The notes: generated by a model from the letters alone, not told the origin. A DNA stretch of 64,000 bases from Candidatus Cloacimonadales bacterium (GCA_963674825.1 OY771587.1:1760001-1824000); one strand, 5' to 3'. Numbered from the stretch's first letter, positions 5,264 to 64,000 are shown. Numbers and translations: made by a program.

Positions 5264-6789
5264 CTACTTCATCATGATCATCTTTCTCACGAAAGAATGA
5301 CCGGCGCTTGTCATACGATAGAAATAGACGCCGCTGGAAGCCTCTTTTCCTGATAAATCTTTTCCATCCCAGATGACTTCATGTACGCCGGCAGGCTGCA
5401 TTGATTCGACAAGCTTGCGAACCATCCGTCCTCTCAGGTCGTAAATTGTGATTTCGACCGGCCCATCCTGGTTGAGCGAATAGATAATCGTCGTGGTCGG
5501 ATTGAACGGATTCGGATAGTTGGAAAGGAGATTCGTAGCGCTTGGCGGAATATCATCGTCGTTGGTCGGAGTCGATTCGACGGTGATCAGGAACGTATCG
5601 CTGCATGAATCGACGCCGTCACTGGCAATTACGGTTACCTCCGTCTGGCCGGACCAGTCTTGCTGGCAATTGATCCAGAGCGCGTCGCCGTCAAGTTGCA
5701 GATTGATGTCTTGGGTGTTGTAGTCGATCGAATAGGAGAGCTGATCCGCGTCGTCATCGGCGAAATATGCGGTCAGATCCAGATCGACAGCCGGGCAATT
5801 GATCTCCAGTGTGAGATCTTCGAAGGGCTGGTAAATGTAGGGCTCGCCATCACGGTCGATGATCGAAATACCTGTTGTCGCATGGCGTTCCGGAGCGTTC
5901 CAGTCTTCGTAGGCATAGGTCGATTCCACAAGCAAGCCTTCTCCGATGACAATGGAAAAGTCAGTTTCTGGAGCTTCTACATCATATTTTTCCAACTATC
6001 ATCTCCCCAACGAACTACCGACGTCACACCTTCGCCGATATCTGTGGCAAGCTCGCTGGCAAGCGTCAGGTCGCTACGATTCATGGGGACAGTCAATGGC
6101 GTATACGTATTCGCTGCAATATTATAGCTGAATGGTTCAAATATAACGCCATGCGTAATCCAGGTCACATCATATTCTTCTTCGTTCACTACCATTAGAG
6201 AAGCACCAACTTGCAGCTCAAAATCCGTTGAGGGAAATCCTTTAATATAATGTTGCCACCCATATTCCCATGTGGAGATGCATATATTGCCTTCATCAAT
6301 ATCTTCCGCGAGATCGGAAGCGTAAACAAAATCGTTTTCGAACGGAAGCGAGATAAGGCTCATATTGTTCGCCTCAATTACAAACCGATACGAGCCGCAA
6401 ATTTGGCTGGGATCACTGTCCTCACCATTCTGGTATGCGACCACGGTGAAGAATTTCATCTGGTACTCGTCGATAGCGGGATAGACAAACTCATTGTTGG
6501 CGATCATCGCTTTCAGGACATACGGCCCATACGGGAAGATAGATGTATAGAGCTTGTAGTGCGTTGCACCGGATACTTCATCCCATGAAAGGAGCGCACT
6601 ATTGTCCTGAACATCGATCGAAATCCCGGCAGGAGGATTGATCAAAGGCTCGCTAGTGCCACGATCTTTCACGACAGGAAAGCCGCTATCGTTGATTCTT
6701 TCGATATAGAAAGAATTGGAATTCTCGAGCGCGACTATGCAGTTGGTCACTGCCAGTATAAAAAGAAATACCAGTACAGCGAGTCTCAT
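5264..6789 (-). pseudogene. Secreted protein with FlgD/Por-type C-terminal tail, split by a 1-base frameshift (ORFs 5977..6789 and 5264..5995)
   Basis: The upstream ORF has the signal peptide and the downstream ORF has the 'NYPNPFNPTTTI...GVYFYRM' tail. One extra base in the T5 run at 5987-5991 fuses them and restores an internal repeat. Confidence 0.7.
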
Positions 6790-13223: not shown

Positions 13224-16200
13224 TTATCTTGTGATTGTTATCTCCGCAGTATCTGCTGTCACCCGATAGAAAAACGTCCCGGTCATTGCTGCGCCTGAAT
13301 CGGTCCACGTCAATTGATTCGTTGAATCGACCAATATCCATCCAGCGTCCGGTGTTTCGGATCGATAGACGTTGTAGCTGTTCGCACCCGTAATCGCATC
13401 CCAGGATAGAACCACATCCGAACCCTCAAGCGTCAATGCGATGTTTTGCGGCGGATCGAGTCCGAGGATATCCGTTGTGAATTGCACCGCCACGCCATAT
13501 GCAATCCCAGCCTCGTTCTGAGCCCAGGCACGCACAAAGTAGGTCGTGCCGGGGGTAAGGCCATTCATCTGGCTTGCGTATGAGCCGGTTTGTGCGCCTT
13601 CGTTGGTGTAGTTGTCCGCTAAGGTCGGAGCTGGGCTTTCGCTCCAGCAAATACCACAATCGATGATATTACACCATCCATCAAAGACGATCTCACCGCC
13701 ACCCATCGCAGAAGTCGGCAGGATGGCTGAAACAGACGAAGTTGCGACATCTGGAACTGCGATACCGTTGCCGGTCAGGTTGACGAATTGTGAATCGATT
13801 TGGGCAGTCGAAAGGATGGCATCATCATCGAAGTCACCGCCACGCCCTGGCGCGAACCGCACGTAGAGCGTAGTTTCAGCCACAATACCGTTTACGGGTT
13901 CCAGGTCTAGTTCCTCGCTGAAAGAGCGATCTCTGGAACGGGTATCCGAAGTTGAAACAACAAATCCGTATGGCATGGAGACATGGATCGGATCGGCCAG
14001 GTTCGTACCGCTGACAGTGAGAGTCTGCGAGCTCGATTGCTCTCCGACAACGATGTTGCCGTAATCGGGCAGTGATGTCACAGATATGGTAAACGACGGC
14101 CCGGGCGCTGTGTCGAACGTGACCTGCGTACCATAGGATGTTCCAGCGCCGTTGGTCGCGTAAGCACGAACGTAATACGTATCGTCCGGATTCAGATTGG
14201 TCAGTTCACTGACGAACGATCCCAGCGATATGTTCTCCGAAGTATGGTCATTCATGATCGTTGGCATGGATGATGTGCTCCAGCAAACGCCAGCAGCGGT
14301 TACCGTGCTGTTGTTGTCCTGAAGTATAATACCACCGGATATAGCTGATGTGCTCGTGATCCCGTTCACTTCGGCGGTATCAACCAGAGGGTAGTCCACT
14401 CCCGTGCCGCTAACTTCTACATACTGGTTATCGAGATTGATACCACAGCAAACGATGTTATCCTCGTACGTAACCAGCTCAGTTGGTTCGAAGCGAACGT
14501 ATATGATGGTCTCTGGAACCTGCTCGTCAATAGGCGTCAGGCTAAGATAATCGGTGAATTCCCGATGTGGGGAAGAGGTGGAGAGGCCGTCGACACGTGT
14601 TCTCCGGCTTTCTTCGGAAGTAAGTGAGATATTGAATCCCGGTGGAGCGTCCAGGATGATATCGCCCATCAGATATTCGCCGCTGACCACGAAGCTCTGC
14701 TCTATTGATTCCTCACCGATAGCCGTTTCTCCGAAATTGCTCAACGGTATGTTGTCGAGGGTCATTTGCGGTACCATAGTAGTAAAGGTTAGTTCATCGC
14801 CATAGAACATACTGGAAGGAACTTCCACAAATGCGCGGCAGTAGTAGTTCCATCCGCCGAAGAGGGCGTTCATCTGCACCTGGAAGGTTCCTATCGAATC
14901 GCTGACCGTGGCATAGGAATCGTCGATGGTCGGGTTCCCCACGCGGTTCCAGCAGAACCCTGCCCGAATCACGTCCTGATTTCCGTTGGAGACGATTGTT
15001 CCAACGCCTGTCGCATAGCCTGCGTGAAGATCAATCACCGAATCGGAGGTGATCTGCGGATCATCGATTGCCCATCCGTAAAGATCGATTGATTCATCGG
15101 AGCCGGCATTGTGTGAGATAACAAGCGGTTCTTCGTTGAAATCACCTGGCTCCGTCGGCTGGAATGCGACTTCGAATGTCCCGGTATTCCAGGGTGAAAT
15201 CGAGAAGGAAATCTGGTTACGATCACGCTGTAATCGGCTGGTCAATTGCCGGCTGTTGCCTGCTTCCGATACACTGTAGTGGGTCGGTGTGGTCATTGTT
15301 CCGGTCAGCGTAATATCGCCTTGATTTTCGATTGTAAACTGTTGTGTCTCGGTTTCGCCTACTTCGATCTGACCAAATCCAAGCCAGGAATCGCTTATGC
15401 TGAGAATGGGCGATCCGATGATCATATCGCACATAACGCTACGAAGCGGCTCAATCCCGTCGTTGCAATCGATCTGGATACCACCCATGTAATAGCCTGC
15501 GATTAGCGTGCTGGAGTCGAAACCGATCGTATAAACATCCGGTGCGCCTCCGGCAGCGATAGAGCCCGTTACTTCGGTCCCGCCATCGAGTATCAACCAT
15601 TGTATGGTGACGGGGGTTCCGGTCAGCAGCACATCGTCGATCATGACTCCGTTTGCCCACAGGTTGTTGTACACCCGGAAGGCAAACTGCACGTTGTGCC
15701 CTTCATACGCCATCAGCGGATAGGTGAGCTGTTGCCAGGACTGTGTCAGGTCATTCTGTGAGAAACTGTCGATGAACGACCATGCGCCACCATCGACAGA
15801 TATCTCGACTCCAAAATCTCCACCATATAAAGGTGGATCGTAGCTCCGAATCCAGAAAGAGAGCTCTGAATCCGAAGATAGTAAAAACTGCGGTGTGATC
15901 AACCGAGCGTCGTTGATATCCCAGTAAACTGCCCGAGCGCAACGAGATCCGGTGTGCGAGACGGTCCAATCTTGATCCCAGGTTGTGCCGTCCGCTGTAT
16001 CCAGCTCCTCGGTGCTCCATCCTTCTGGTGGGAAATCTCCTTCGAAGCTTTCGTCGATAAGGTTATCGCGCTGACGCCCCCACATTTCCACCGTGGCCGT
16101 ATAATTCAGCGTCTGATTACCGGTGTTCGATATTGTAATAGAGCGCGAATCGCTTCCACCAGGTAGGAGCTCGACCTGAATGGATTCAGGATCGGTCACG

Positions 16201-44775: not shown

Positions 44776-45582
44776 ATGTGTACAATCGAGATTCAAAAAG
44801 GGCTGAGCGCACCATTCCCGAGCACGGACATCGAGTTCCGGGTCTGCCGCGTATCGCAACGAACGAAGAAAGCCAACGTGCTGGCGTATATCACGGCACG
44901 GGGCATCATGCGCAGGCTGGACAAGGTCTTCGGTATCGACGGCTGGCGAGACGAATACGAGGTGCTGGACAGCGGTGTCAAATGCCGTCTGTCGGTGCGC
45001 CTGGACGATGCGTGGATCACAAAGGAAGACGTCGCGCAGTTCACCCAGATCGAAGCGCTCAAGGGAGCGTTCTCGGACTCGCTCAAGCGTGCCGGAGTCA
45101 AGTTCGGCATCGGTCGATATCTGTACGACCTGCCGGATTATTGGATTGATGTACTGCCCGAACGTCCACCCAAGAGCGACCGCAAAGCCCACTACCACAA
45201 CTCCGATAACGTCACCGGCTGGTGGCTGGAACCCGTCCTTCCCGACTGGGCATTGCCGGAAAAGGATCATATCGATGATAAGGTCGATGGCAAGCTGATG
45301 GTAAAGCTGGACGACATGCTCGACCGGCAGCTCTTGACCGAATCCAAGCACGGGCATTTCGTGTCGATGTTGTCGTCATCGCAGACATCGGACGCCCGAA
45401 AGAAGCTCATCCGCACGCAGCTTGAACTGATCGAGCTGTGGGAGACGAACGTCCTCAACCACCCCACCATGCCGCAAGCACAGAAACGCGAGCTCTATCT
45501 GGCTGCCCTCAGCGCGACATCGAAAAACGCGCCGTCGGTACGCAAGCTCTTGCAGGAAAGCGGAGCAGAGGAGGCGGCATGA
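44776..45582 (+). CDS. Rad52/Rad22-family (Sak-like) single-strand annealing protein
   Basis: 'LSAPFPSTDIEFRV', 'LAYITARGIMRRLDKVFG', 'KGAFSDSLKRAGVKFGIGRYLY'. Confidence 0.88.
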   Translation: MCTIEIQKGLSAPFPSTDIEFRVCRVSQRTKKANVLAYITARGIMRRLDKVFGIDGWRDEYEVLDSGVKCRLSVRLDDAWITKEDVAQFTQIEALKGAFSDSLKRAGVKFGIGRYLYDLPDYWIDVLPERPPKSDRKAHYHNSDNVTGWWLEPVLPDWALPEKDHIDDKVDGKLMVKLDDMLDRQLLTESKHGHFVSMLSSSQTSDARKKLIRTQLELIELWETNVLNHPTMPQAQKRELYLAALSATSKNAPSVRKLLQESGAEEAA

Positions 45583-46460
45583 ACCTCACGAATCAACACG
45601 GTTTGCCGGACATGCTGGTGCGCGCCATCGAAAGCAACTGGTACTCCGGCGAAGGCGAGAAGCGTTTTGCCTCCGTGACCCAGCTCTTGAAGCCGACCAA
45701 GCAGCTCATCCTGGAGAAACGCCACGCCCGAGCCCTCAAACAGGACGCCAGCGACATGATCTGGTCGTTGATGGGTTCTGCGATGCACAAAGTGATTGAA
45801 GCTGCTGAGGACGCTAATTCGCTCTCTGAGGAAAGATTGCGCGTTGAGATCGACGATGCAGTCATCACCGGCGGGGTCGATTTCTATGAGGACGGCATGA
45901 TCTCCGATTTCAAGTTTACCGGCGTATGGAACCATGGCCGGGCGTCGCGCATCGCCGAGTGGGAAAAGCAGCTCAACATGTACGCCTACCTCTATCGACA
46001 GCATGGCTTTCCGGTCGAGAAGCTTCAGGTCGTCGCCATCTATCGCGATTGGAATCGCGCCCGGTGCGAGAACGACACCGACTATCCCGAGCAGGTTGAG
46101 ACCATCGATATCCCGCTATGGGACGACGAAAAAACGCGCGCCTTTATCGCATCGCGCATCGAAGATATCCGGCAGGCGATGCAGTTCCCGGATGATTTCA
46201 TTCCACCTTGCACCGCCGCAGAACGATGGCAATCCGAGCCGCAATGCGCGGTCTATAAGACCGGTGGCAAGCGTGCTCTGCGCGTATTCCCGACCATGCA
46301 GGAAGCGAAGGATTTTCTCGCCAGTCACAAAGACGCCGCCAACCTTCATATCGTCACCCGCGAGGACACGCCCAAACGGTGCATGAACTACTGTGCCGTC
46401 AATCAGTTCTGCCACTTCTACCGCGATGTTCTCGCCCTACCCATCCCCAAAACCGCATAG
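45579..46460 (+). CDS. PD-(D/E)XK nuclease (Cas4/RecB-like phage exonuclease)
   Basis: 'GSAMHKVIE', 'ITGGVD', 'ISDFKFT', 'QLNMYAYL', C-terminal 'RCMNYCAVNQFC'. Confidence 0.8.
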   Translation: MNLTNQHGLPDMLVRAIESNWYSGEGEKRFASVTQLLKPTKQLILEKRHARALKQDASDMIWSLMGSAMHKVIEAAEDANSLSEERLRVEIDDAVITGGVDFYEDGMISDFKFTGVWNHGRASRIAEWEKQLNMYAYLYRQHGFPVEKLQVVAIYRDWNRARCENDTDYPEQVETIDIPLWDDEKTRAFIASRIEDIRQAMQFPDDFIPPCTAAERWQSEPQCAVYKTGGKRALRVFPTMQEAKDFLASHKDAANLHIVTREDTPKRCMNYCAVNQFCHFYRDVLALPIPKTA

Positions 46461-54231: not shown

Positions 54232-55233
54232 ATGAAAGCATCTCAATTGAAAGAAACGCTGGCGTATGCCATCAAGAACAAGCTGCCCGTGCTGATCAAG
54301 GGCGCGCCTGGAACCGGCAAGAGCGATCTGGTGGCGCAAGCATGCCATGAAGCCGGAGCCGACCTCATTATCAGTCATCCCGTGGTGTCCGATCCGACCG
54401 ACTACAAAGGACTGCCATTCCCTGTTGCGGACAAGGACGAAGCCACCTTTCTGCCCTTCGGCGATCTACTAAGGTTAATCCGCGCCGAGAAACCTACCGT
54501 GTTCTTTCTGGACGATCTTGGACAGGCACCCGCAAGCGTTCAGAGTGCTGTCATGCAGCTGATCTTGGCGCGTCGGGTCAATGGGCACAGCGTGTCGGAG
54601 CATGTCGTGTTTCTGGCGGCAACCAACCGTCGCGAGGACAAAGCAGGTGTGATGGGTATCCTGGAGCCGGTGAAGAGTCGTTTTGCCGCGATTGTCGAGC
54701 TGGAGGTGGACGTCGATGACTGGGTTACGTGGGCGTTCCGCGAGGAAATGCCGGCGGAGTTGATCGCCTTCATCCGCTACCGACCGCATCTGCTCCACGA
54801 CTTCAAACCTACCGCCGATATCGTCAACACGCCCTCTCCTCGAACCGTCGCATATGTGGGCACGATGATGAAGAATGGTTTACCCGAAGACCTGACCTAC
54901 GAGCTGATCGCTGGCGCTGCTGGAGAAGGTTTTGCGACGGAACTCATCGGCTTCCTGAACATTTTCAGGGACTTGCCGGATATCCCGACGTTGATCAAGA
55001 ACCCCGAGAAAGCTGTCGTACCTGAAGAGCTATCGCTGTTATTTGCCATCTGCGGCGCGTTGGTACAGCAGGCGAATCGCAAGAACTTCGGGCATATCCT
55101 GTCCTATGCGGAGCGCATCCCACCGGAGTTTCAGGTGCTGCTGGTCAACGATGCTCAGCGTCGAAATCAAGCGCTCTCGTCCTGTCCCGCCTTCGCCCAG
55201 TGGGCAATCGATCACTACGATATCGTTTTCTAG
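54232..55233 (+). CDS. MoxR-like AAA+ ATPase
   Basis: Walker A 'GAPGTGKS', Walker B 'FFLDD', 'AATNR', 'SRF', 'PSPRT'. Confidence 0.85.
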   Translation: MKASQLKETLAYAIKNKLPVLIKGAPGTGKSDLVAQACHEAGADLIISHPVVSDPTDYKGLPFPVADKDEATFLPFGDLLRLIRAEKPTVFFLDDLGQAPASVQSAVMQLILARRVNGHSVSEHVVFLAATNRREDKAGVMGILEPVKSRFAAIVELEVDVDDWVTWAFREEMPAELIAFIRYRPHLLHDFKPTADIVNTPSPRTVAYVGTMMKNGLPEDLTYELIAGAAGEGFATELIGFLNIFRDLPDIPTLIKNPEKAVVPEELSLLFAICGALVQQANRKNFGHILSYAERIPPEFQVLLVNDAQRRNQALSSCPAFAQWAIDHYDIVF

Positions 55234-55374
55234 CACCCCCTTGATAAAGTGTAGGTTTTCGGAACGGAAACCTGAATCTCTCAACAGGGATTAAGGGGGA
55301 TTCCCCTTTTCTTTAATCGCCTTCATAAACACACAAACCACTATCCAAACATTAATTACAACAAGGAGACCACT

Positions 55375-56232
55375 ATGCCTATCCAAAACAAAGCCATGAT
55401 CGCCCACCTGCATATCTCGACGTGGACTGCGCGAAAATTCGACCGCCGTGTGACCCGCGAGATCGAGGACAACTACGCTGCCAGCAACTCCGGTCGTTAC
55501 AACAAGATACTCATCGCGACCGAGTACCTGGGCAAAATCCAGAAGATCGCCTCCGCAGCCCGTGCCTACCACTATGAAAACACCCTGCCCTGGATGGACA
55601 ACGGCGGACGACTGCTTCCCACCGCCAATTACTTCACCTATGTTCAGCAGATGGACGAATACCGCGCCGAGTTTCTGCGTGAGGTGAACGCCTTTCTGGA
55701 CAGCTATCCCGACTACCAGCAGGAAGCGAGAAACCGCCTCAACGGGATGTACTCCATCGAGGATTACCCTGACATCGATCGTCTGCGACAGAAGTACGCT
55801 TTCTCCGTTCGCATGGCGCCGATCGCTGACGCGGAAGATTTTCGTGTGAGTCTGAATGACGAAGACGTCAAAGCCATCCGTGAGGACTATCGCAAGCAAC
55901 TCGAAGACGGACTGCGTGAAGCACACCAAGACCTGTGGAAACGGTTGCATGGGGTGGTCGGTCACATGCTGGAGCGGCTTTCGACTGCCGATGCGAGGTT
56001 CAAGAATAGCCTGGTCGAGAACATCCGCGATATCTGCCGACTGATGCCCAAGCTCAATATCACCGAAGACCCGCTACTCGACCAGATGGTGGATGAAATC
56101 AAGCAGAAGCTGACCATCCACGCGCCGGAGGTACTACGCAATGACCCGGAAATCCGCAGCGATACGGCTTTGGCAGCGAAACAGATCATCGAGAAGATGC
56201 GGCATTATGCGCCCCTTCGGGAGGCGTCATGA
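55375..56232 (+). CDS. Conserved mobile-element protein (DUF3150-like) between the AAA and vWA genes
   Basis: 'HISTWTARKFD', 'YENTLPWMDNGGRLLP', 'KLNITEDP'. The family call is from recall and position. Confidence 0.5.
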   Translation: MPIQNKAMIAHLHISTWTARKFDRRVTREIEDNYAASNSGRYNKILIATEYLGKIQKIASAARAYHYENTLPWMDNGGRLLPTANYFTYVQQMDEYRAEFLREVNAFLDSYPDYQQEARNRLNGMYSIEDYPDIDRLRQKYAFSVRMAPIADAEDFRVSLNDEDVKAIREDYRKQLEDGLREAHQDLWKRLHGVVGHMLERLSTADARFKNSLVENIRDICRLMPKLNITEDPLLDQMVDEIKQKLTIHAPEVLRNDPEIRSDTALAAKQIIEKMRHYAPLREAS

Positions 56233-57341
56233 ACGCGCGGGAAAAGCTGATCAAGGCAAGGGCGGGTCTGGTTTTGGGTTCGCCCTTTTTCGCAAGTATC
56301 GCGCTCCATCTGAAGCTCGTCGAGGACGCCACCTGCGAGACCGCCTATACCGACTCGGTCGTACTGGGTTATAGCCCGTCTTTCATCGACGAACTGACTC
56401 TGGCGGAGACCAAAGCGCTGATCTGTCACGAGGTGATGCATGTCGCCATGCTGCACGCCTTCCGCAGAAAGAACCGCGATCATCAGATGTGGAACGTAGC
56501 CTGCGACTACGCCATCAATCCCGTGATCGACAAAACCGGGATGCTGTTGCCCGATGGCGCACTCTTCCATCATCAGTACGACAATATGGAAGCAGAAGCG
56601 ATCTATGCAAGGTTGCAGCAAGATAAGACGAGGAAACGACACCAGAAGCCATCCTTCGGTGAGGTGCGGGACTACAAACCCAAGCCCGGTGACCTGCCCA
56701 TGCCACAGCAGATGCAGAACACGAAGATACAAGTCTCGCAAGCCATGACAACCGCCAGAATGCAAGGAAAGTTGCCCCAAGACATGGAGCGCACGATCAA
56801 CGAAATCCTTCAGCCGCAGCTGCCCTGGAAAGAAATCCTGAGTCGTTTCATCACCCAAAACTCCCGAAACGACTACCGATGGAAACAACCCAACGGCAGA
56901 TATCTGCATGCGGGGCTATACCTGCCAACGCTATCAGCCCCATCGCTCGGAACCATTGCTGTCCTGATCGATACCAGCGGCTCCGTCAACCAGACGGAAC
57001 TCGATCTATTCGCCTCAGAGCTGAAATCCATCCTCGCATCCTACCCCGACACAACCATCCACGTCGCCTACGTCGATAGCCACGTAGCCCACCACCACGA
57101 CCTCGCCCTCCACGATTTCCATCTCGAAGCCCAAGGCGGAGGTGGCACCGACTACCGACCCGGTTTCGCCCACATCGAAGATAACTTGATCAACCCCTCC
57201 TGCATCCTCTACTTCACCGACGGCTACTGCGACGCCTTCCCCGATTCATGCGATACTCCAACCCTGTGGATCGTGACGGAACGGCAACGTTTCTCGCCGC
57301 CGTTTGGAGAGGTCGTATATTTGAAGAATGACCAACGATAA
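56229..57341 (+). CDS. DUF2201-type metallopeptidase / vWA protein
   Basis: 'CHEVMHVAMLH', 'WNVACDYAIN', MIDAS 'IDTSGS', 'GGGGTDY', 'YFTDGY'. Confidence 0.88.
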   Translation: MNAREKLIKARAGLVLGSPFFASIALHLKLVEDATCETAYTDSVVLGYSPSFIDELTLAETKALICHEVMHVAMLHAFRRKNRDHQMWNVACDYAINPVIDKTGMLLPDGALFHHQYDNMEAEAIYARLQQDKTRKRHQKPSFGEVRDYKPKPGDLPMPQQMQNTKIQVSQAMTTARMQGKLPQDMERTINEILQPQLPWKEILSRFITQNSRNDYRWKQPNGRYLHAGLYLPTLSAPSLGTIAVLIDTSGSVNQTELDLFASELKSILASYPDTTIHVAYVDSHVAHHHDLALHDFHLEAQGGGGTDYRPGFAHIEDNLINPSCILYFTDGYCDAFPDSCDTPTLWIVTERQRFSPPFGEVVYLKNDQR

Positions 57342-57369
57342 AGGCAGGAGAATACCCTCTGCCTTTTTT
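57341..57369 (+). terminator. Terminator separating the AAA-vWA operon from the cas operon
   Basis: aaggcag...ctgcctt followed by a T-tract. Confidence 0.6.
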
Positions 57370-57545
57370 AGCTATCAGTGCAATTTGCTTGACATTGCGT
57401 AATGGAGCTTATTGATATGGCAAGTATGATTCAGCGCTTTGTCCAAAATGTAAGTATCTTGTTATTTCGGCATGTGCCATGCCTTATATAGCTATAGCAT
57501 CCCTACGAACATAATGAGCCTCAATGCACTAGTAAGGAGACGCCT

Positions 57546-58868
57546 ATGTGCTCTAACGATCAACGCTATAATCTTCTCGATGAGAAATGGTTACCTGTCC
57601 TGACACTTCGTGGAAAGAATGAAAAGCTTGGCATCATCGAAACGCTCGAACAGGCGGCTTCAATCCGCCAAATCGCCCCCAGCAACCCCATGGACCGGTT
57701 CGCGGTCTTCCGGTTTTTGCTGGCTGTGTGCTATTGGTGCGCGGATCGGACAAAGATGCCATTCTCCAAAAATGGTTCTAAGATACCGAGTGAGTGGATC
57801 ATTTTCCTTGAAAGGCGGCGTGATTGCTTTAATCTGCTGGGGGATGGGAAGAGGTTTTATCAATCTAAGAATGGGCATGAGCAATCAATAACCTACTTGA
57901 TTCATGAACTCCCATCAGGTACAAACCATGAGTTTATCAGGCATGTTTGTGATGATCGCTCAGGTTTATGTCCGGCATGTTGCGCACTTGGATTGATTCG
58001 ATTACCTGTATTCACGACAAGCGGTGGAAGAGGCTATTCACCGGGAATCAATGGCACTCCCCCATTGTACATGATTTCTTGGGGTTATAATCTGTATGAA
58101 TTGCTTCGAGCAAATTGGAGAATATCTGATAGCATTGGCCCTCCTTCATGGGATCCCGGCATTCAAGCAAGCATTTCATCAGAAGATATTCCATTACTGG
58201 CAGGATTAACCTCACTTCCTCGATATGTTTGGCTGAAGGAACCAGATCGTGACGAGAATACCGGTATTTGTTCTTTTTGCGGTATACGAACCGATAAACT
58301 TATATCACATTGCGAATACAGTCCGGTAGCAGGAGTTTTCTCCGAGAGTTGGAAAGATCCTTACATCATCGATATCAGTACATCATCGAAACGCAAATCG
58401 CTCATGGTATATAATCTGAAATCCCCAGGCAAGTTCACATTCGATAGAAGGACAAATGAACAACTACCGATGACCCCATCTTGTAATAAGATGTTACTCA
58501 TTGGTTTCTGTGCCGATAAAGCTGAAAACGTTGATGTCTGGGAAAAAACCATTACTCTGTCGTCATCATCCTCTGAGGAAGAAATGGGATCTGTCTGGAA
58601 CATAGCAGCAAGAGAAATCACGAAGAAAGTCAAAGCTCCATTCATTCTTCAAAAAGCAAGACCTCACGTCGAGCAGCTGGTCGCGAATCACATGACCGAC
58701 CTGCTATCGGGCAACGGAAATTACACCTGGGATGACGCCGCGAACGAATACGCACCGTTCATGGAAGCTGCGGCCGAATCGCTCACACCGGATGTGACAA
58801 TCAGGGATGCCCGAAAGCGCAGGGAGATCACACAGGTACGTCCCAAGCTCCCGAAGGAGGACAAGTAA
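57546..58868 (+). CDS. cas8e: Type I-E Cascade large subunit Cas8e (Cse1/CasA), short (440 aa)
   Basis: 'YNLLDEKWLPV', 'FNLLGDGKRFYQ', 'LCPACCALGL', 'GGRGYSPGING', 'WKDPY'; first gene of the operon. Confidence 0.88.
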   Translation: MCSNDQRYNLLDEKWLPVLTLRGKNEKLGIIETLEQAASIRQIAPSNPMDRFAVFRFLLAVCYWCADRTKMPFSKNGSKIPSEWIIFLERRRDCFNLLGDGKRFYQSKNGHEQSITYLIHELPSGTNHEFIRHVCDDRSGLCPACCALGLIRLPVFTTSGGRGYSPGINGTPPLYMISWGYNLYELLRANWRISDSIGPPSWDPGIQASISSEDIPLLAGLTSLPRYVWLKEPDRDENTGICSFCGIRTDKLISHCEYSPVAGVFSESWKDPYIIDISTSSKRKSLMVYNLKSPGKFTFDRRTNEQLPMTPSCNKMLLIGFCADKAENVDVWEKTITLSSSSSEEEMGSVWNIAAREITKKVKAPFILQKARPHVEQLVANHMTDLLSGNGNYTWDDAANEYAPFMEAAAESLTPDVTIRDARKRREITQVRPKLPKEDK

Positions 58869-58869
58869 G

Positions 58870-59358
58870 ATGGCAAGTATCAGCACCTATCGTTTCATCA
58901 TCAACCTTTCGAAGCTCAAATCGGGCGAGCTCAGTCTCCTGCGCACCCACGCCGATCAGGGCCTCGACGAGAGCCTGCAAGGTTTCGATATCTTTACCGG
59001 CATCTGGTGGCCACTCAGGCAGAAGAATCAGCGTGCTCCACGCCGAAGCGTGGCGTGGCTTGTCTGCAAGCTCTACGCCGTCGCACCATTGCCTTTCGAA
59101 AAGGGCGAACACATCATGACGCTCCTTGCCAAGCGACGAAAACAGTTGGATAACGATAAAAGAGATCGTTTCGACAAGCGCGTCGATGAAATGCTCGTGC
59201 AGTCGCTCGATACCATCGAGCCTCATCTTCGGTGGGCCTTGCGAGAGATCGCAAAGCTCGGGTCTCTCGACTGGGCACAGCTTACCGATGATCTTTCCAT
59301 CTGGGAAAGACAGACCACCCGACAAAAATGGATCAACCAATACATCATTCAGCAATAA
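58870..59358 (+). CDS. cas11: Type I-E small subunit Cas11 (Cse2/CasB)
   Basis: ~160-aa helical protein between cas8e and cas7; 'GELSLLR', 'LDWAQLTDDLSIW...QKW'. Confidence 0.8.
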   Translation: MASISTYRFIINLSKLKSGELSLLRTHADQGLDESLQGFDIFTGIWWPLRQKNQRAPRRSVAWLVCKLYAVAPLPFEKGEHIMTLLAKRRKQLDNDKRDRFDKRVDEMLVQSLDTIEPHLRWALREIAKLGSLDWAQLTDDLSIWERQTTRQKWINQYIIQQ

Positions 59359-59370
59359 CAGGAGGAACCC

Positions 59371-60501
59371 ATGCTTATCGAGATTCACGCTATCCAGAAC
59401 CACGCCCCAAGCAACCTCAACCGCGACGACCTCGGCGCACCCAAGACAACCATGTTCGGCGGCTACCTCAGAAGCCGTATCTCCAGCCAATGCCTCAAAC
59501 GTAGTATCCGCACCAGTGACCAATTCAAAGACCTGCTCGGTGGTGTAAGAACCCGCAGGTTGGTACAACTGATAGAAGATCAAATCGAAGGCACGGATGA
59601 TATCAAGACCAAGGTAAGGAAACGTGCGCTCAAAGTGCTCGACAAACTCAATATCGCAGGGAAGAAAGACGAAAGCTCCATGCTGGTTTATACAACCAAA
59701 GACGCTATCTCGAAAATGGCGACAATGTTACTTGAATACCAGGGGGACGAGAAAGACGTAGATGAAGTCTTCAAGGATCAATTCGTTACCCTGATCTCTT
59801 CGAGCACTGCCGTTCCAGATATGGCGCTATGCGGTCGAATGCTGGAGCCGACCGGCGATATCTGGAAGCATAGGAACAACACTGTCGAAGCTGCCCTGCA
59901 AGCCGCGCACGCGATATCGACCCATGAAGCGCGTCCAGAGATCGATTACTACGTCGCAGCAGATGATGTGAAAGGTAAAGACGCGGGGGCAGGATTCGTC
60001 GATGAAGCCCTCTATTCATCCTCTTGCTTCTACAAGTACTTCTCCATCGACTGGGATCAGCTTGTTGGCAATCTTGGCGGTCAGGTCGATCTGGCGGCGC
60101 ACACAGTCGGCGCGTTCATCCGTGCCATGGCGCTGACAACACCGAGCGGTAAACAGAACAGCTATGCCGCGCACAATCCACCGGATGGTATTCTCGTCGT
60201 AATCAAGAAGGATAACAAGACGCCCATCAGCTACGCCAACGCCTTCGTGAAGCCGGTCAGACCCGGTCAGCGAGACCTGGTGGAAGAAAGCATCGCGCAA
60301 CTGGCGCAGTATGTCTCCGAGCTCGATGAAGGCTTCGGTATACAGGCAGAGCGATACTGGTTCTCGCCGGGTAAACGTTACGAATTCAAGAATATGGACT
60401 GCCTTAGCAACTTTGACCAGTTCATCACGGCAATCATGAAAGAGATGGGCTTTGACTGGCAGGATGTCCAGAAAGCGATCGTGGCGGTTCATGATGCGTG
60501 A
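59371..60501 (+). CDS. cas7: Type I-E backbone Cas7 (Cse4/CasC)
   Basis: 'IEIHAIQNHAPSNLNRDDLGAPKT', 'RISSQCLKR', 'AHAISTH', 'PSGKQNSYA'. Confidence 0.96.
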   Translation: MLIEIHAIQNHAPSNLNRDDLGAPKTTMFGGYLRSRISSQCLKRSIRTSDQFKDLLGGVRTRRLVQLIEDQIEGTDDIKTKVRKRALKVLDKLNIAGKKDESSMLVYTTKDAISKMATMLLEYQGDEKDVDEVFKDQFVTLISSSTAVPDMALCGRMLEPTGDIWKHRNNTVEAALQAAHAISTHEARPEIDYYVAADDVKGKDAGAGFVDEALYSSSCFYKYFSIDWDQLVGNLGGQVDLAAHTVGAFIRAMALTTPSGKQNSYAAHNPPDGILVVIKKDNKTPISYANAFVKPVRPGQRDLVEESIAQLAQYVSELDEGFGIQAERYWFSPGKRYEFKNMDCLSNFDQFITAIMKEMGFDWQDVQKAIVAVHDA

Positions 60502-61624
60502 CAACACCCTGTTCCTGCGTCTGGAAGGACCGATGCAGGCGTGGGGAAGCCATGAATCGAAGTTCGTGATCCGGCGCACGAAGGAAGCGCCCACCAAGTC
60601 CGGCGTTATCGGCATGCTCTGCGCCGCGATGGGTCTATCTCGTCTGGAAGCGCAAGACGGCTGGCTCGAAAGGCTATCGGAACTCGAAATGGGCGTGCGC
60701 ATCGATCGCCCCGGCATCCGCTGGTGGGACTGGCATACCGTGGGTGCGGGCATGAAGATGGCAACGGCTGAAGGCGGCAAGAAAGACGGCCCCATGCTCA
60801 CCCGTCGCGAATACCTCTGCGACGCGAGTTTCCTGGTAGCGCTTCGGGATGGCGAAGACCTGATCGATACCCTGTCATCCGCACTCGAAAATCCCGTCTG
60901 GGCGCTATTCCTGGGCCGCAAGAACTGCCCGATGTCGCGACCGGTCAACGAGCACGGCACAAGTAGGTTCGGTTCGCTCGAAGAAGCCCTCGCATCGATC
61001 CCGTGGCCAAGAAGGCATGAAACCTTTATCCAGAAACCGGATCACCTCGACCTGATCCTCGACTGGCGCCCCACCGAAGATCAGCCCGAAGCTCCCGGAA
61101 GAGCCGAAGTCTGGTACGACGTTCCCTTCACCTTCGATCCTCCGTCGCACAGACCGCGTTTTGTCGTTCGATCGTCGATGATTGTCGGCGAAAACGGCGA
61201 TGTGAAGCGCAGTAATGTGATACAGGGCGTAAAAGGCGCATACTCTTCAGAACGCCCCCGCGCCAACTACCAGAATACCGAGTTCCGCAAGAAACGCGCA
61301 GAACGCCTGGAGCAGGATCAAGGTCGCTGCACCTTCTGTGGTTCACCGGCTTCCACGGTCCAGCACATTACCTATCGACGTGCCGGTGGTAATGAATCGC
61401 CCGACGACCTGAAGTCACTGTGCCGTCTCTGCCACGACGCTATCACCATGCTCGAATACGGCGCCAACATGGGCATCGATCGCATCGATCCCACCGATGA
61501 GAAATGGCGTGAGCGTATCCTCGAAAAACGCGCCGAGATCGTGAAATTCCGCAGCAAGAAGACCCGTGATCGCAGATTCAAGGAAAAGGAGGGCGATGAT
61601 GTACCTGTCACAACTACTGATTGA
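60491..61624 (+). CDS. cas5: Cas5e (CasD) fused to a C-terminal HNH endonuclease
   Basis: N-terminal 'LRLEGPMQAWG...PTKSGVIGMLCAAMG...RREYLCDASF...LFLGRKNC'; C-terminal 'RCTFCG...VQHITY...DLKSLCRLCH'. Confidence 0.92.
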   Translation: MMRDNTLFLRLEGPMQAWGSHESKFVIRRTKEAPTKSGVIGMLCAAMGLSRLEAQDGWLERLSELEMGVRIDRPGIRWWDWHTVGAGMKMATAEGGKKDGPMLTRREYLCDASFLVALRDGEDLIDTLSSALENPVWALFLGRKNCPMSRPVNEHGTSRFGSLEEALASIPWPRRHETFIQKPDHLDLILDWRPTEDQPEAPGRAEVWYDVPFTFDPPSHRPRFVVRSSMIVGENGDVKRSNVIQGVKGAYSSERPRANYQNTEFRKKRAERLEQDQGRCTFCGSPASTVQHITYRRAGGNESPDDLKSLCRLCHDAITMLEYGANMGIDRIDPTDEKWRERILEKRAEIVKFRSKKTRDRRFKEKEGDDVPVTTTD

Positions 61625-62336
61625 CACAGGCGGTAATCCCGATCGACCGCGTCCGGGAAGGATGTGGCTCAACAACATCTATCACGTCCACCAGCGGCTC
61701 TCGATGGCGTTCGGCAAAAAGGAAGATCATAATGCCATATTCCTATTCCGCATCGACAACAACATCAGTTCCGACGGCTCGCGCGCGATGATTCTGGTGC
61801 AATCGGAGGAAAAGCCGGATTGGGACCAGGCCTTCCATAACGCGCCTGATTTCCTCGCATTTCCACCGGAATGCAAACCCTACGAGCCTGTCTTTCAGAA
61901 AGGCGATATCCTGCGCTACCGGCTGCTGGCGAATCCCACGAAGAAGATCACGGTGAATCGCAAGAATGTGGATGGTGTGTGGATCGACTGTGAACCACGG
62001 AAAATACGCGTTTCGGTGGGTTACGATATTCAAATGCCCAATGAACTGGATGAAAGGCACAAGGAATGGCTTGAAAGGCAGGCAATGCATAGCGGTTTCG
62101 TCATCAAGAACTTCGAGCTACAACGCCTTTTCCGGGTCGTTGGCTACAGGCCGAATGGTGTTTCAACCAAAAGTGGAAGCTGGAACCTCGACAAGCAGCG
62201 ACTCACCTTCAACGCAGCATTGATGGAAGGAGTCCTCGAAGTCACCGATCCGAGCCAATTCATGGATACGATTCGCAAAGGCATCGGCTCGGCGAAGTCG
62301 TTCGGGTTCGGGCTGCTGTCTGTTATCCGGAGGTAG
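61596..62336 (+). CDS. cas6e: Type I-E crRNA-processing endoribonuclease Cas6e (Cse3/CasE)
   Basis: 'MYLSQL', 'YHVHQRL', 'LRYRLLANPTKK', Gly-rich loop 'GIGSAKSFGFGLLS'. Confidence 0.93.
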   Translation: MMYLSQLLIDTGGNPDRPRPGRMWLNNIYHVHQRLSMAFGKKEDHNAIFLFRIDNNISSDGSRAMILVQSEEKPDWDQAFHNAPDFLAFPPECKPYEPVFQKGDILRYRLLANPTKKITVNRKNVDGVWIDCEPRKIRVSVGYDIQMPNELDERHKEWLERQAMHSGFVIKNFELQRLFRVVGYRPNGVSTKSGSWNLDKQRLTFNAALMEGVLEVTDPSQFMDTIRKGIGSAKSFGFGLLSVIRR

Positions 62337-63300: not shown

Positions 63301-63581
63301 ACGTCATGATTCTCGAGAAGGTGCCTGTCTCACTCAGAGGAGAGCTGACTCGCTGGCTGCTGGAGGTGAAGGCAGGTGTGTTTGTCGGTAATGTCTCCGC
63401 CATGGTGCGCGACCGGCTATGGAAGAAAGTATGCGGTGGTTCCAAAGGCGGCGCTTGCATGATGCTGTGGTCAACGAACAACGAACAGGGTTTTCGTGTT
63501 GACTTCTGGGGTGCCAATAGTAGAATCGTCACAGATTGGGAGGGACTTAAGCTATTGACAAAGCCCTCGAAGCCCGATTAA
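63297..63581 (+). CDS. cas2: Type I-E Cas2
   Basis: '[33 protein letters not shown]', 'NNEQGF', 'DWEGLKL'. Confidence 0.95.
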
Positions 63582-63588
63582 ATCAAGA

Positions 63589-64000
63589 GTATTCCCCACG
63601 CATGTGGGGGTGAACCGTCCTCGCCAGACACTATTCTATAATTGGTTCTGTATTCCCCACGCATGTGGGGGTGAACCGGAGGTATGATATGGCAGGATAT
63701 CTTGGATACGTATTCCCCACGCATGTGGGGGTGAACCGGTCCGATACATCGAACACCACTCCGAACTATTGTATTCCCCACGCATGTGGGGGTGAACCGA
63801 GGTGAAACTCGTTGTGAAGGCAGGAATTGAAGTATTCCCCACGCATGTGGGGGTGAACCGTTGCGCGGTCAGGAATTAAGCCGTGACGTATCGTATTCCC
63901 CACGCATGTGGGGGTGAACCGTCGGCCACCGTGCTGTCCCCAACGCTGTTGTAGTATTCCCCACGCATGTGGGGGTGAACCGAGGGCATCCTGAAGATTA
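63589..64000 (+). CRISPR. Type I-E CRISPR array, 7 identical 29-bp repeats, continues past the window edge
   Basis: GTATTCCCCACGCATGTGGGGGTGAACCG at 63589, 63650, 63710, 63771, 63832, 63893 and 63954; spacers of 32, 31, 32, 32, 32 and 32 bp plus a partial one. Confidence 0.99.

Follow-up and report, generated by a model that had tools for sequence, protein, structure and literature searches.

The cas operon towards the downstream end of the DNA stretch analysed here (64,000 nt from a Candidatus Cloacimonadales bacterium, GCA_963674825.1, OY771587.1:1760001-1824000; hereafter, the window) raises the question of whether its type I-E Cascade carries a nuclease of its own and dispenses with Cas3, as the initial annotation had proposed from the length and C-terminal motifs of Cas5. 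The genes follow the order cas8e-cas11-cas7-cas5HNH-cas6-cas1-cas2 and are followed, 7 nt past the cas2e stop codon, by an array of 18 repeats (Table 1). For all five Cascade subunits, the best solved match is a chain of PDB 8YB6, in agreement with the proposed membership in the Cas5-HNH class; Cas8e passes the Pfam cut-off but falls below that of TIGR02547 (59.9 versus 70.05).

Table 1. Features of the cas locus, in window coordinates
Feature	Position	Strand	Matches and remarks
cas8e (Cse1), 440 aa	57546..58868	+	PF09481 E 3.5e-28; 8yb6_J E 5.7e-79
Low-GC block inside cas8, residues ~101-376, 828 bp	57846..58673	+	apparently exchanged between species
cas11 (Cse2), 162 aa	58870..59358	+	PF09485; 8yb6_K E 3.2e-29
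cas7, 376 aa	59371..60501	+	TIGR01869 over cut-off; 8yb6_D E 3.2e-118
cas5-HNH fusion, 377 aa	60491..61624	+	single open frame; Pfam and fold search
Cas5e core, residues 5-214	60506..61135	+	PF09704 (Cas_Cas5d) E 3.8e-39; TIGR01868 over cut-off
HNH domain with flanking helices, residues 263-362	61280..61579	+	
G283 in place of K302 (Cas6 contact in solved protein)	61340..61342	+	K in 118/119 relatives
Catalytic His291 (= H310)	61364..61366	+	H in 119/119 relatives
cas6e, 245 aa, HNH-Cascade type	61599..62336	+	TIGR01907 over cut-off; 8yb6_B E 8e-61; N-terminal D-R-P motif kept
9-aa Cas6 loop	61713..61739	+	solved Cas6: 25 aa carrying H50/F51/K53
cas1e, 317 aa	62347..63300	+	TIGR03638 E 1.1e-115
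cas2e, 94 aa	63297..63581	+	TIGR01873
CRISPR array, first 7 of 18 repeats	63589..63982	+	continues to window coordinate 64653

An intact Cas5-HNH fusion

The cas5 frame starts with an ATG at 60491; an alternative ATG at 60494 yields a 376-aa form (P0001), which provides the residue numbers used here. As the annotation had it, a Cas5e of ~377 aa continues in one frame into the HNH part, with no stop across 60491-61624: the Cas5e core is followed by a linker, a zinc-binding HNH domain and an 8-residue tail that overlaps the start of cas6. The C-terminal peptide quoted there recurs letter for letter, as do the motif positions, namely C279/C282 (61328-61339), H291 (61364-61366) and C310-H314 (61421-61435). 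Residues 279-317 match the HNH profile PF01844 (E 7.6e-06, 26.4 bits against a cut-off of 21.4), and in a fold search the same part also matches the HNH protein of phage GVE2 (5h0m; rmsd 2.3 over 82 columns, probability 1.00, E 0.022). The zinc-binding HNH signature thus stands as a domain, but not in the letters of its triad, which read H-D-H rather than H-N-H.

Aligned with published Cas5-HNH, the protein matches 8yb6_A over its full length (E 1e-127, 53-55% identity), and the active-site and zinc residues coincide. Its AlphaFold2 model (mean pLDDT 80) retrieves full-length Cas5-HNH chains of 53-55% identity as the top five matches of the fold search; the rmsd to these chains, 17-19 A, is what would be expected of a flexibly linked domain. 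The fusion is not an assembly slip: in runs X1 and X2, positions 57300-62309 are spanned by a single 5103-nt contig free of differences and gaps. The two runs come from one sample, possibly the source, and were compared as contigs rather than raw reads; neither a stop nor a frameshift separates Cas5 from the HNH part in the spanning contigs.

Assignment to variant I-E2

By its sequence and gene content, we assign the locus to an immune system of the type I-E variant I-E2 (Cas5-HNH) lacking Cas3, a class that has already been described, examined by mutagenesis and solved in several cryo-EM structures. In the available sections of the respective papers, the class is reported by Altae-Tran 2023 (PMC10910872) and the variant, typically without Cas3, is named I-E2 (Makarova 2025, PMC12669027); for the Cas5-HNH Cascade from Ca. 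Cloacimonetes bacterium ADurb.Bin088, structures are deposited as PDB 8YB6, 8YHA, 8ZLU, 8ZM3, 8ZP7 and 9JXS. The locus combines a Cas5-HNH in a single frame and the I-E gene set with the active site, 32-nt spacers and the absence of cas3. In the host genome, which is one contig and 99.57% complete, PF18019, TIGR01596 and TIGR01587 gave no cas3 match over cut-off, with controls detected, in line with the claim of a Cascade without Cas3. A fourth, unspecific model, PF22590, had an over-cut-off match that is RecG, and two sub-cut-off matches that were checked are an Lhr-like helicase and an HDIG protein. By these models, the helicase-nuclease of canonical type I-E was not found in this genome.

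The earlier suggestion of a possible new ortholog also stands, the protein being a full-length ortholog of ADurb.Bin088 Cas5-HNH at 53-55% identity. The two systems share the five Cascade genes, the C-terminal HNH on Cas5 and the lack of cas3, as well as the H-D-H triad, a Q before the catalytic His, four Cys, 32-nt spacers and the contact residues of Cas11 and of the N-terminal part of Cas6. By contrast, K302, H295 and T306 of the solved protein are replaced here by G, Q and S, respectively; the Cas6 loop has 9 rather than 25 aa; Cas8 has 440 aa compared to 535 aa deposited, with the alignment starting at deposited residue 81; and the C-terminal tail of Cas5-HNH overlapping cas6 is a feature of the present locus. 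According to the accessible text of Altae-Tran 2023 (PMC10910872), the ADurb.Bin088 system depends on a PAM and cuts downstream of the protospacer, at 3-4 bp on the target strand and at 8 bp on the non-target strand, leaving 3' overhangs, and cleaves ssDNA collaterally; that of Liu 2025 (PMC11794572) describes one Cas11, with the HNH in place of the second Cas11, and a target strand that is cut first.

Canonical type I-E systems of E. coli and T. fusca resemble the locus in gene order, hairpin repeat, AAG flank and a Cas6 loop of the same length, but need Cas3, have two Cas11 and a Cas5 of 224-254 aa without a nuclease. Another Cascade with a built-in HNH is the type I-F4 Cas8-HNH Cascade of Selenomonas sp., reportedly studied by Hirano in 2024. 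There, too, the HNH replaces Cas3, and it cuts both strands PAM-distally (PMC11822464); however, it resides on Cas8 of an I-F complex and reportedly leaves 5' overhangs, as opposed to the 3' overhangs given for Cas5-HNH in the available part of Altae-Tran 2023 (PMC10910872). Type I-F4 does not describe the present locus, in which Cas8 matches Cse1 only and the HNH match lies on Cas5.

Distribution of the family

A search for relatives of Cas5-HNH returned 4501 candidates, 1750 of which passed E 0.001; the best 119 non-self clusters are 58-84% identical over 94-100% of the length. With 119 clusters or more at no less than 58% identity, the family is not scarce. In a scan of metagenome contigs with one relative (P0004), 264 of 357 stretches were confirmed, and 80 of these were kept. 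Within the phylum, 18 genomes in a sample of 232, many of them incomplete, match the family alignment, with 14 full-length fusions, one fragment and 3 plain Cas5; among the type I-E systems detected in the phylum, I-E2 predominates. The class had been called known but rare: it is indeed known, but with 14 fusions among 232 genomes of the phylum, rarity holds only relative to cultured bacteria. The gene is present in all three other genomes of the genus, intact in two (84-86% identity) and broken in the third, G002. In one sister locus (L005, about 6182-6237), cas1 is largely deleted between cas6 and cas2, with the Cascade genes and an 8-repeat array remaining; L010 carries a similar cas1 deletion.

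Active site and selection

Adding 19 to a residue number here gives the published number in the solved ADurb.Bin088 Cas5-HNH. The catalytic residues H291, D305 and H314 correspond to H310, D324 and H333, the zinc ligands C279/C282/C310/C313 to C298/C301/C329/C332, and Q290 and Y259 to Q309 and Y278. H291, Q290, H314, C279, C282, C310 and Y259 are invariant in the 119 relatives, whereas the position of D305 is D in 89, E in 29 and Q in 1; published T306 is S here, as in 7 of the 119 relatives, 103 having T. In the sections of Liu 2025 (PMC11794572) that are available, cleavage by the solved system is abolished in H310A, D324A and Cys mutants and nearly abolished in Y278, T306 and Q309 mutants. 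Judging from the alignment, the catalytic and zinc residues tested in print are all kept in the present protein.

In a simple Nei-Gojobori count against two sister genomes, dN/dS of the HNH codons 263-362 is 0.11 and 0.08, and that of the Cas5 core is higher (0.24 and 0.17, respectively); relative to these two genomes, the HNH domain is under purifying selection. In a motif scan, the site taken for D324 is A in two other family members (L024 and L092), and the second residue ahead of their catalytic His is G; their Cas5-HNH may be inactive, or the scan may have been shifted by an indel.

The contact between Cas6 and the HNH domain

Of the published contacts that hold the HNH domain, those on the Cas11 side are kept and those on the Cas6 side are partly lost. 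Cas11 retains W47/R50/Q54, equivalent to W46/R49/Q53, the mutation of which abolished activity in the solved system according to the accessible text of Liu 2025 (PMC11794572). Likewise kept are D15/R16/P17, R33 and N81 of Cas6 (published D16/R17/P18, R34 and N98) and E270, M319, R339, V350 and F352 of the HNH (published E289, M338, R358, V369 and F371). Missing are K302 and H295, replaced by G and Q, and Cas6 H50/F51/K53. In the solved structure, K302 stacks on Cas6 F51 in what the same portion of Liu 2025 (PMC11794572) names a cation-pi contact, and some mutations of the HNH-Cas6 interface lower cleavage.

We surveyed the Cas6 loop in 82 sequences, i.e. the window and 81 loci, which left 74 distinct ones once duplicates and one fragment were dropped. 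The great majority (69) combine a loop of 25-59 aa with K; three have 9 aa and G, and two (L006 and L062) have 10-11 aa and K. The 9-aa loop with G characterizes all three intact copies of this genus, and among the 119 relatives of Cas5-HNH the G occurs only in the 84% identical sister P0002; in 11 genomes of the phylum, another 12 orthologs without exception combine K with a loop of 25-26 aa. In a quick Cas5 tree of 79 rows, rooted at the midpoint and with a careful search unfinished, the genus groups together (SH-aLRT support 100%) and sits on a long stem; three changes are needed on this tree for the pattern of loop and K302, and a single origin is compatible with it. Strict covariation between the loop and K302 was rejected, with K kept in two of the five short-loop loci. 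The sequences compared are best described by a single K302-to-G event in one clade, together with a loop that can shorten while K stays, the simplest reading being that loss of the loop was followed by relaxed constraint on the K302 position. E. coli Cas6e aligns gap-free, albeit weakly (E 0.18), over the same 9-aa loop, and G after CxxC is common in HNH zinc knuckles.

A prediction of the complex between Cas6 and the HNH, with Cas7 and Cas11 absent from the model, scored 0.77 against 0.00 for the best of 3 controls, the runs agreeing in at least 76% of contacts and the partners having pLDDT of at least 76; the mark used is reached by 116 of 157 solved pairs and by 2 of 215 mismatched pairs. 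The predicted interface joins Cas6 residues 3-7, 56-66, 83-93, 106, 241 and 243 to HNH residues 264, 268, 287-290, 311-328 and 348-359. It takes in the catalytic face, unlike the published arrangement, in which the catalytic cleft faces Cas11 according to a review, and it lacks equivalents of the published Cas6 contacts R33, R34, Q97, N98 and W217. Since a like complex is already solved and its interface is not reproduced, the prediction is not counted as support for docking. Among the papers listed in literature searches, none dealt with a loop-less Cas6 in I-E2; the figures of Liu 2025, and Zhang et al. 2024 (Mol Cell), may already show the weight of the loop.

Arrays and spacer targets

The main array consists of 18 identical 29-nt repeats, each with a 7-bp hairpin, and all but one of its 17 spacers are 32 nt long, the remaining one being 31 nt. 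A second array of 4 repeats, supported by contigs, lies 13 kb beyond the first (L001, about 14170-14570; genome 1837673-1838063) and is preceded by the 3' part of a cas2 gene. The differences of this part from the main cas2 lie in its first half and seem to be synonymous; over the last ~90 nt, the two are identical. This identity in front of both arrays suggests that the leader may lie inside cas2. A single array split by an insertion was ruled out because a cas2 end of its own precedes the second array; a promoter within cas2 was likewise discarded, with one consensus site at 63499-63526 but 4 sites found where 5.3 are expected by chance. Between the two arrays (L001 4457-13939), a 3160-aa secreted-looking protein is encoded behind a TPR/sigma-54-type regulator, both recognized by eye. 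Another copy of the system has left a deletion relic elsewhere (L002, about 6547-6704; genome 1974546-1974703), where a 125-nt copy of the 3' end of cas6 (92% identity) is immediately followed by a solo repeat that differs at 2 positions.

Spacer 17, just beyond the window end, matches the sister genome G002 in 32 of 32 positions, and the target is preceded by 5'-AAG. It lies in a prophage with transposase, DNA transposition protein, terminase, portal and tape measure genes, a combination that points to a Mu-like prophage. The cas locus of G002 is itself broken, with IS-like and reverse-transcriptase-like frames (by eye) and a cas5 remnant that stops just before the catalytic His. The match is consistent with a phage that this immune system once encountered and that now resides in a relative which has lost the system, although a single match does not prove the cause. 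On the strength of this one perfect match, the PAM is probably 5'-AAG, which is also the consensus PAM of E. coli type I-E. The Mu-like prophage with its AAG flank would be a natural target for an I-E2 system.

Further protospacers were found neither in viral_contigs, for the 2 of 20 spacers tried and with no relative of the target gene there, nor among 232 genomes of the phylum, with 2 candidates scored per genome; the collection 'phages' gave only a chance match (E 0.3). Outside the arrays, the genome has no match to any of its own spacers at fewer than 7 mismatches. The label 'self-cutting' given to this Cascade is therefore apt in the sense of self-sufficient, i.e. having its own nuclease, but not in that of targeting its own genome. 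No spacer is common to our array and the sister arrays examined, which points to ongoing acquisition.

A low-GC block within cas8

An internal segment of cas8 has a GC content of 42.5% compared to 54.5% in the rest of cas8-cas6 and is 97.3% identical to its counterpart in the sister L005 (22 differences in 828), as opposed to 84.5% elsewhere. Counting third codon positions alone, the lowest number of differences from L005 in a window of 270 sites is 10, a value reached by 0 of 5000 shuffles (mean 57), which ignore autocorrelation; the GC3 gap between cas5 and cas8 is 0.21, the maximum in 47 other family loci measured being 0.17. Per 100 nt, the block shares only about 45-65% identity with L004, whereas its flanks share 75-92%; the L004 block has a different glycine-loop motif, and parts of cas7 and cas6 are also divergent there. 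From these three genomes, the segment looks like an internal cassette recently exchanged between species. Its donor was not among the matches obtained, the best non-self ones being 31-48% identical, and among the papers listed in the literature searches none described such an exchange in I-E2.

The glycine-rich loop within the block presumably contacts the PAM, by analogy with E. coli Cse1. A PAM switch through the cas8 swap is not supported: two spacers of L004, with its other cas8 block, match the same G002 prophage, where the flanks are AAG and AAA, but either match has 8 mismatches, a weak signal from 44 spacers scanned. Moreover, the sequence that flanks a spacer at its acquisition bears the mark of Cas1-Cas2, not of Cas8.

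Mechanism and alternative readings

In all likelihood, the locus is an active Cas3-less I-E2 immune system that works as its solved ortholog does; it is by this orthology that cleavage, and the position-defined cut foreseen in the annotation, can be inferred for the present copy. Cas6 would cut the array transcript into 61-nt crRNAs and remain on the 3' hairpin, and the complex would assemble from Cas8, one Cas11, six Cas7, Cas5-HNH and Cas6. Once Cas8 reads the PAM, here probably 5'-AAG, and the R-loop forms, the HNH, on its long linker, would occupy the PAM-distal place that belongs to the second Cas11 in other Cascades. From there it would nick first the target and next the non-target strand, a few bases past the protospacer, producing a staggered break instead of processive degradation. 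What is new lies in small quirks of the lineage (the Cas6 loop with G283, and the cas8 block) and in one natural phage target; the class is unchanged. With subunits a little smaller than those of most relatives, the copy is an ortholog that also represents a naturally occurring mutant of the interface between HNH and Cas6.

How much this mutant matters is where readings diverge. Most likely, loss of the Cas6 loop together with K302-to-G pared down a single contact patch at tolerable cost, and Cas11 along with the Cas6 contacts that remain would still hold the HNH. A variant with a less tightly tethered HNH, in which the cut position, efficiency or collateral ssDNA cleavage differs clearly from the solved system, seems improbable. 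The named contact of K302 with F51, the long loop with K in nearly all other Cas6 surveyed (including the 12 further orthologs of the phylum) and the confinement of the 9-aa loop with G to the intact copies of a well-supported, long-stemmed clade would agree with it; yet the pairing of loop and G is one event in one lineage without repeated covariation, L006 and L062 keep K beside a short loop, E. coli Cas6e has the same loop length in a weak alignment, a G is commonplace at this site of the zinc knuckle, and the catalytic core is unchanged. A broader proposal, which we consider doubtful though somewhat less so, is that the genus carries a re-built I-E2 Cascade, with the HNH, deprived of the clamping Cas6 loop and of its own matching lysine, tethered differently (shifting the cut site or strengthening collateral activity) and a PAM-side cas8 block traded between species, which would change the PAM range or anti-CRISPR exposure without touching the nuclease. 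If true, nature would have tested here how the cut depends on HNH docking, and tools built on HNH-Cascade would gain a template for exchanging specificity.

A decaying or binding-only Cascade, in which the HNH is a relic and the complex silences instead of cutting, might be suspected from the wrecked copy in the sister genome, the relics of other copies in the host (the cas6 end with the solo repeat and the cas2 end with the 4-repeat array) and the presence of a Cas9 system that could take over defence. However, intact catalytic and zinc residues, the low dN/dS of the HNH, 18 identical repeats and spacers not shared with the sister arrays examined make this very unlikely. Hardly any weight attaches to an assembly or annotation artefact, or to an ordinary Cascade using a Cas3 encoded elsewhere: although the best supporting runs may be the source sample and no other support was found, one contig spans the gene without differences, the 119 other full-length fusions are independent orthologs that already refute the artefact, and the near-complete host genome lacks cas3.

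Neighbourhood and other defence loci

Directly upstream of the I-E2 operon (window 54232-57341) lies a module encoding an AAA ATPase, a DUF3150 protein and a DUF2201 (vWA/metallopeptidase) protein, which adjoins the I-E2 locus in sister genomes too. About 11 kb upstream of the cas operon (window 44776-46460), there are phage- or mobile-element-like frames that resemble, by eye, a Rad52-type annealing protein and a PD-(D/E)xK nuclease. The host genome also carries a type II CRISPR system with a compact Cas9 of 1025 aa, an NMENI-type cas1, cas2 and an array (L130 5973-10385, array to about 12400; genome from 1995972), so that immunity does not depend on I-E2 alone. A deleted second copy of the AAA ATPase-DUF3150-DUF2201 module is found directly upstream of this Cas9 locus (genome 1994662-1995654). 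The locus also has as neighbours an Lhr-like helicase and, from a match under cut-off, a BrxD-like ATP-binding protein (L130 1397-4538), which suggests a defence island around Cas9.
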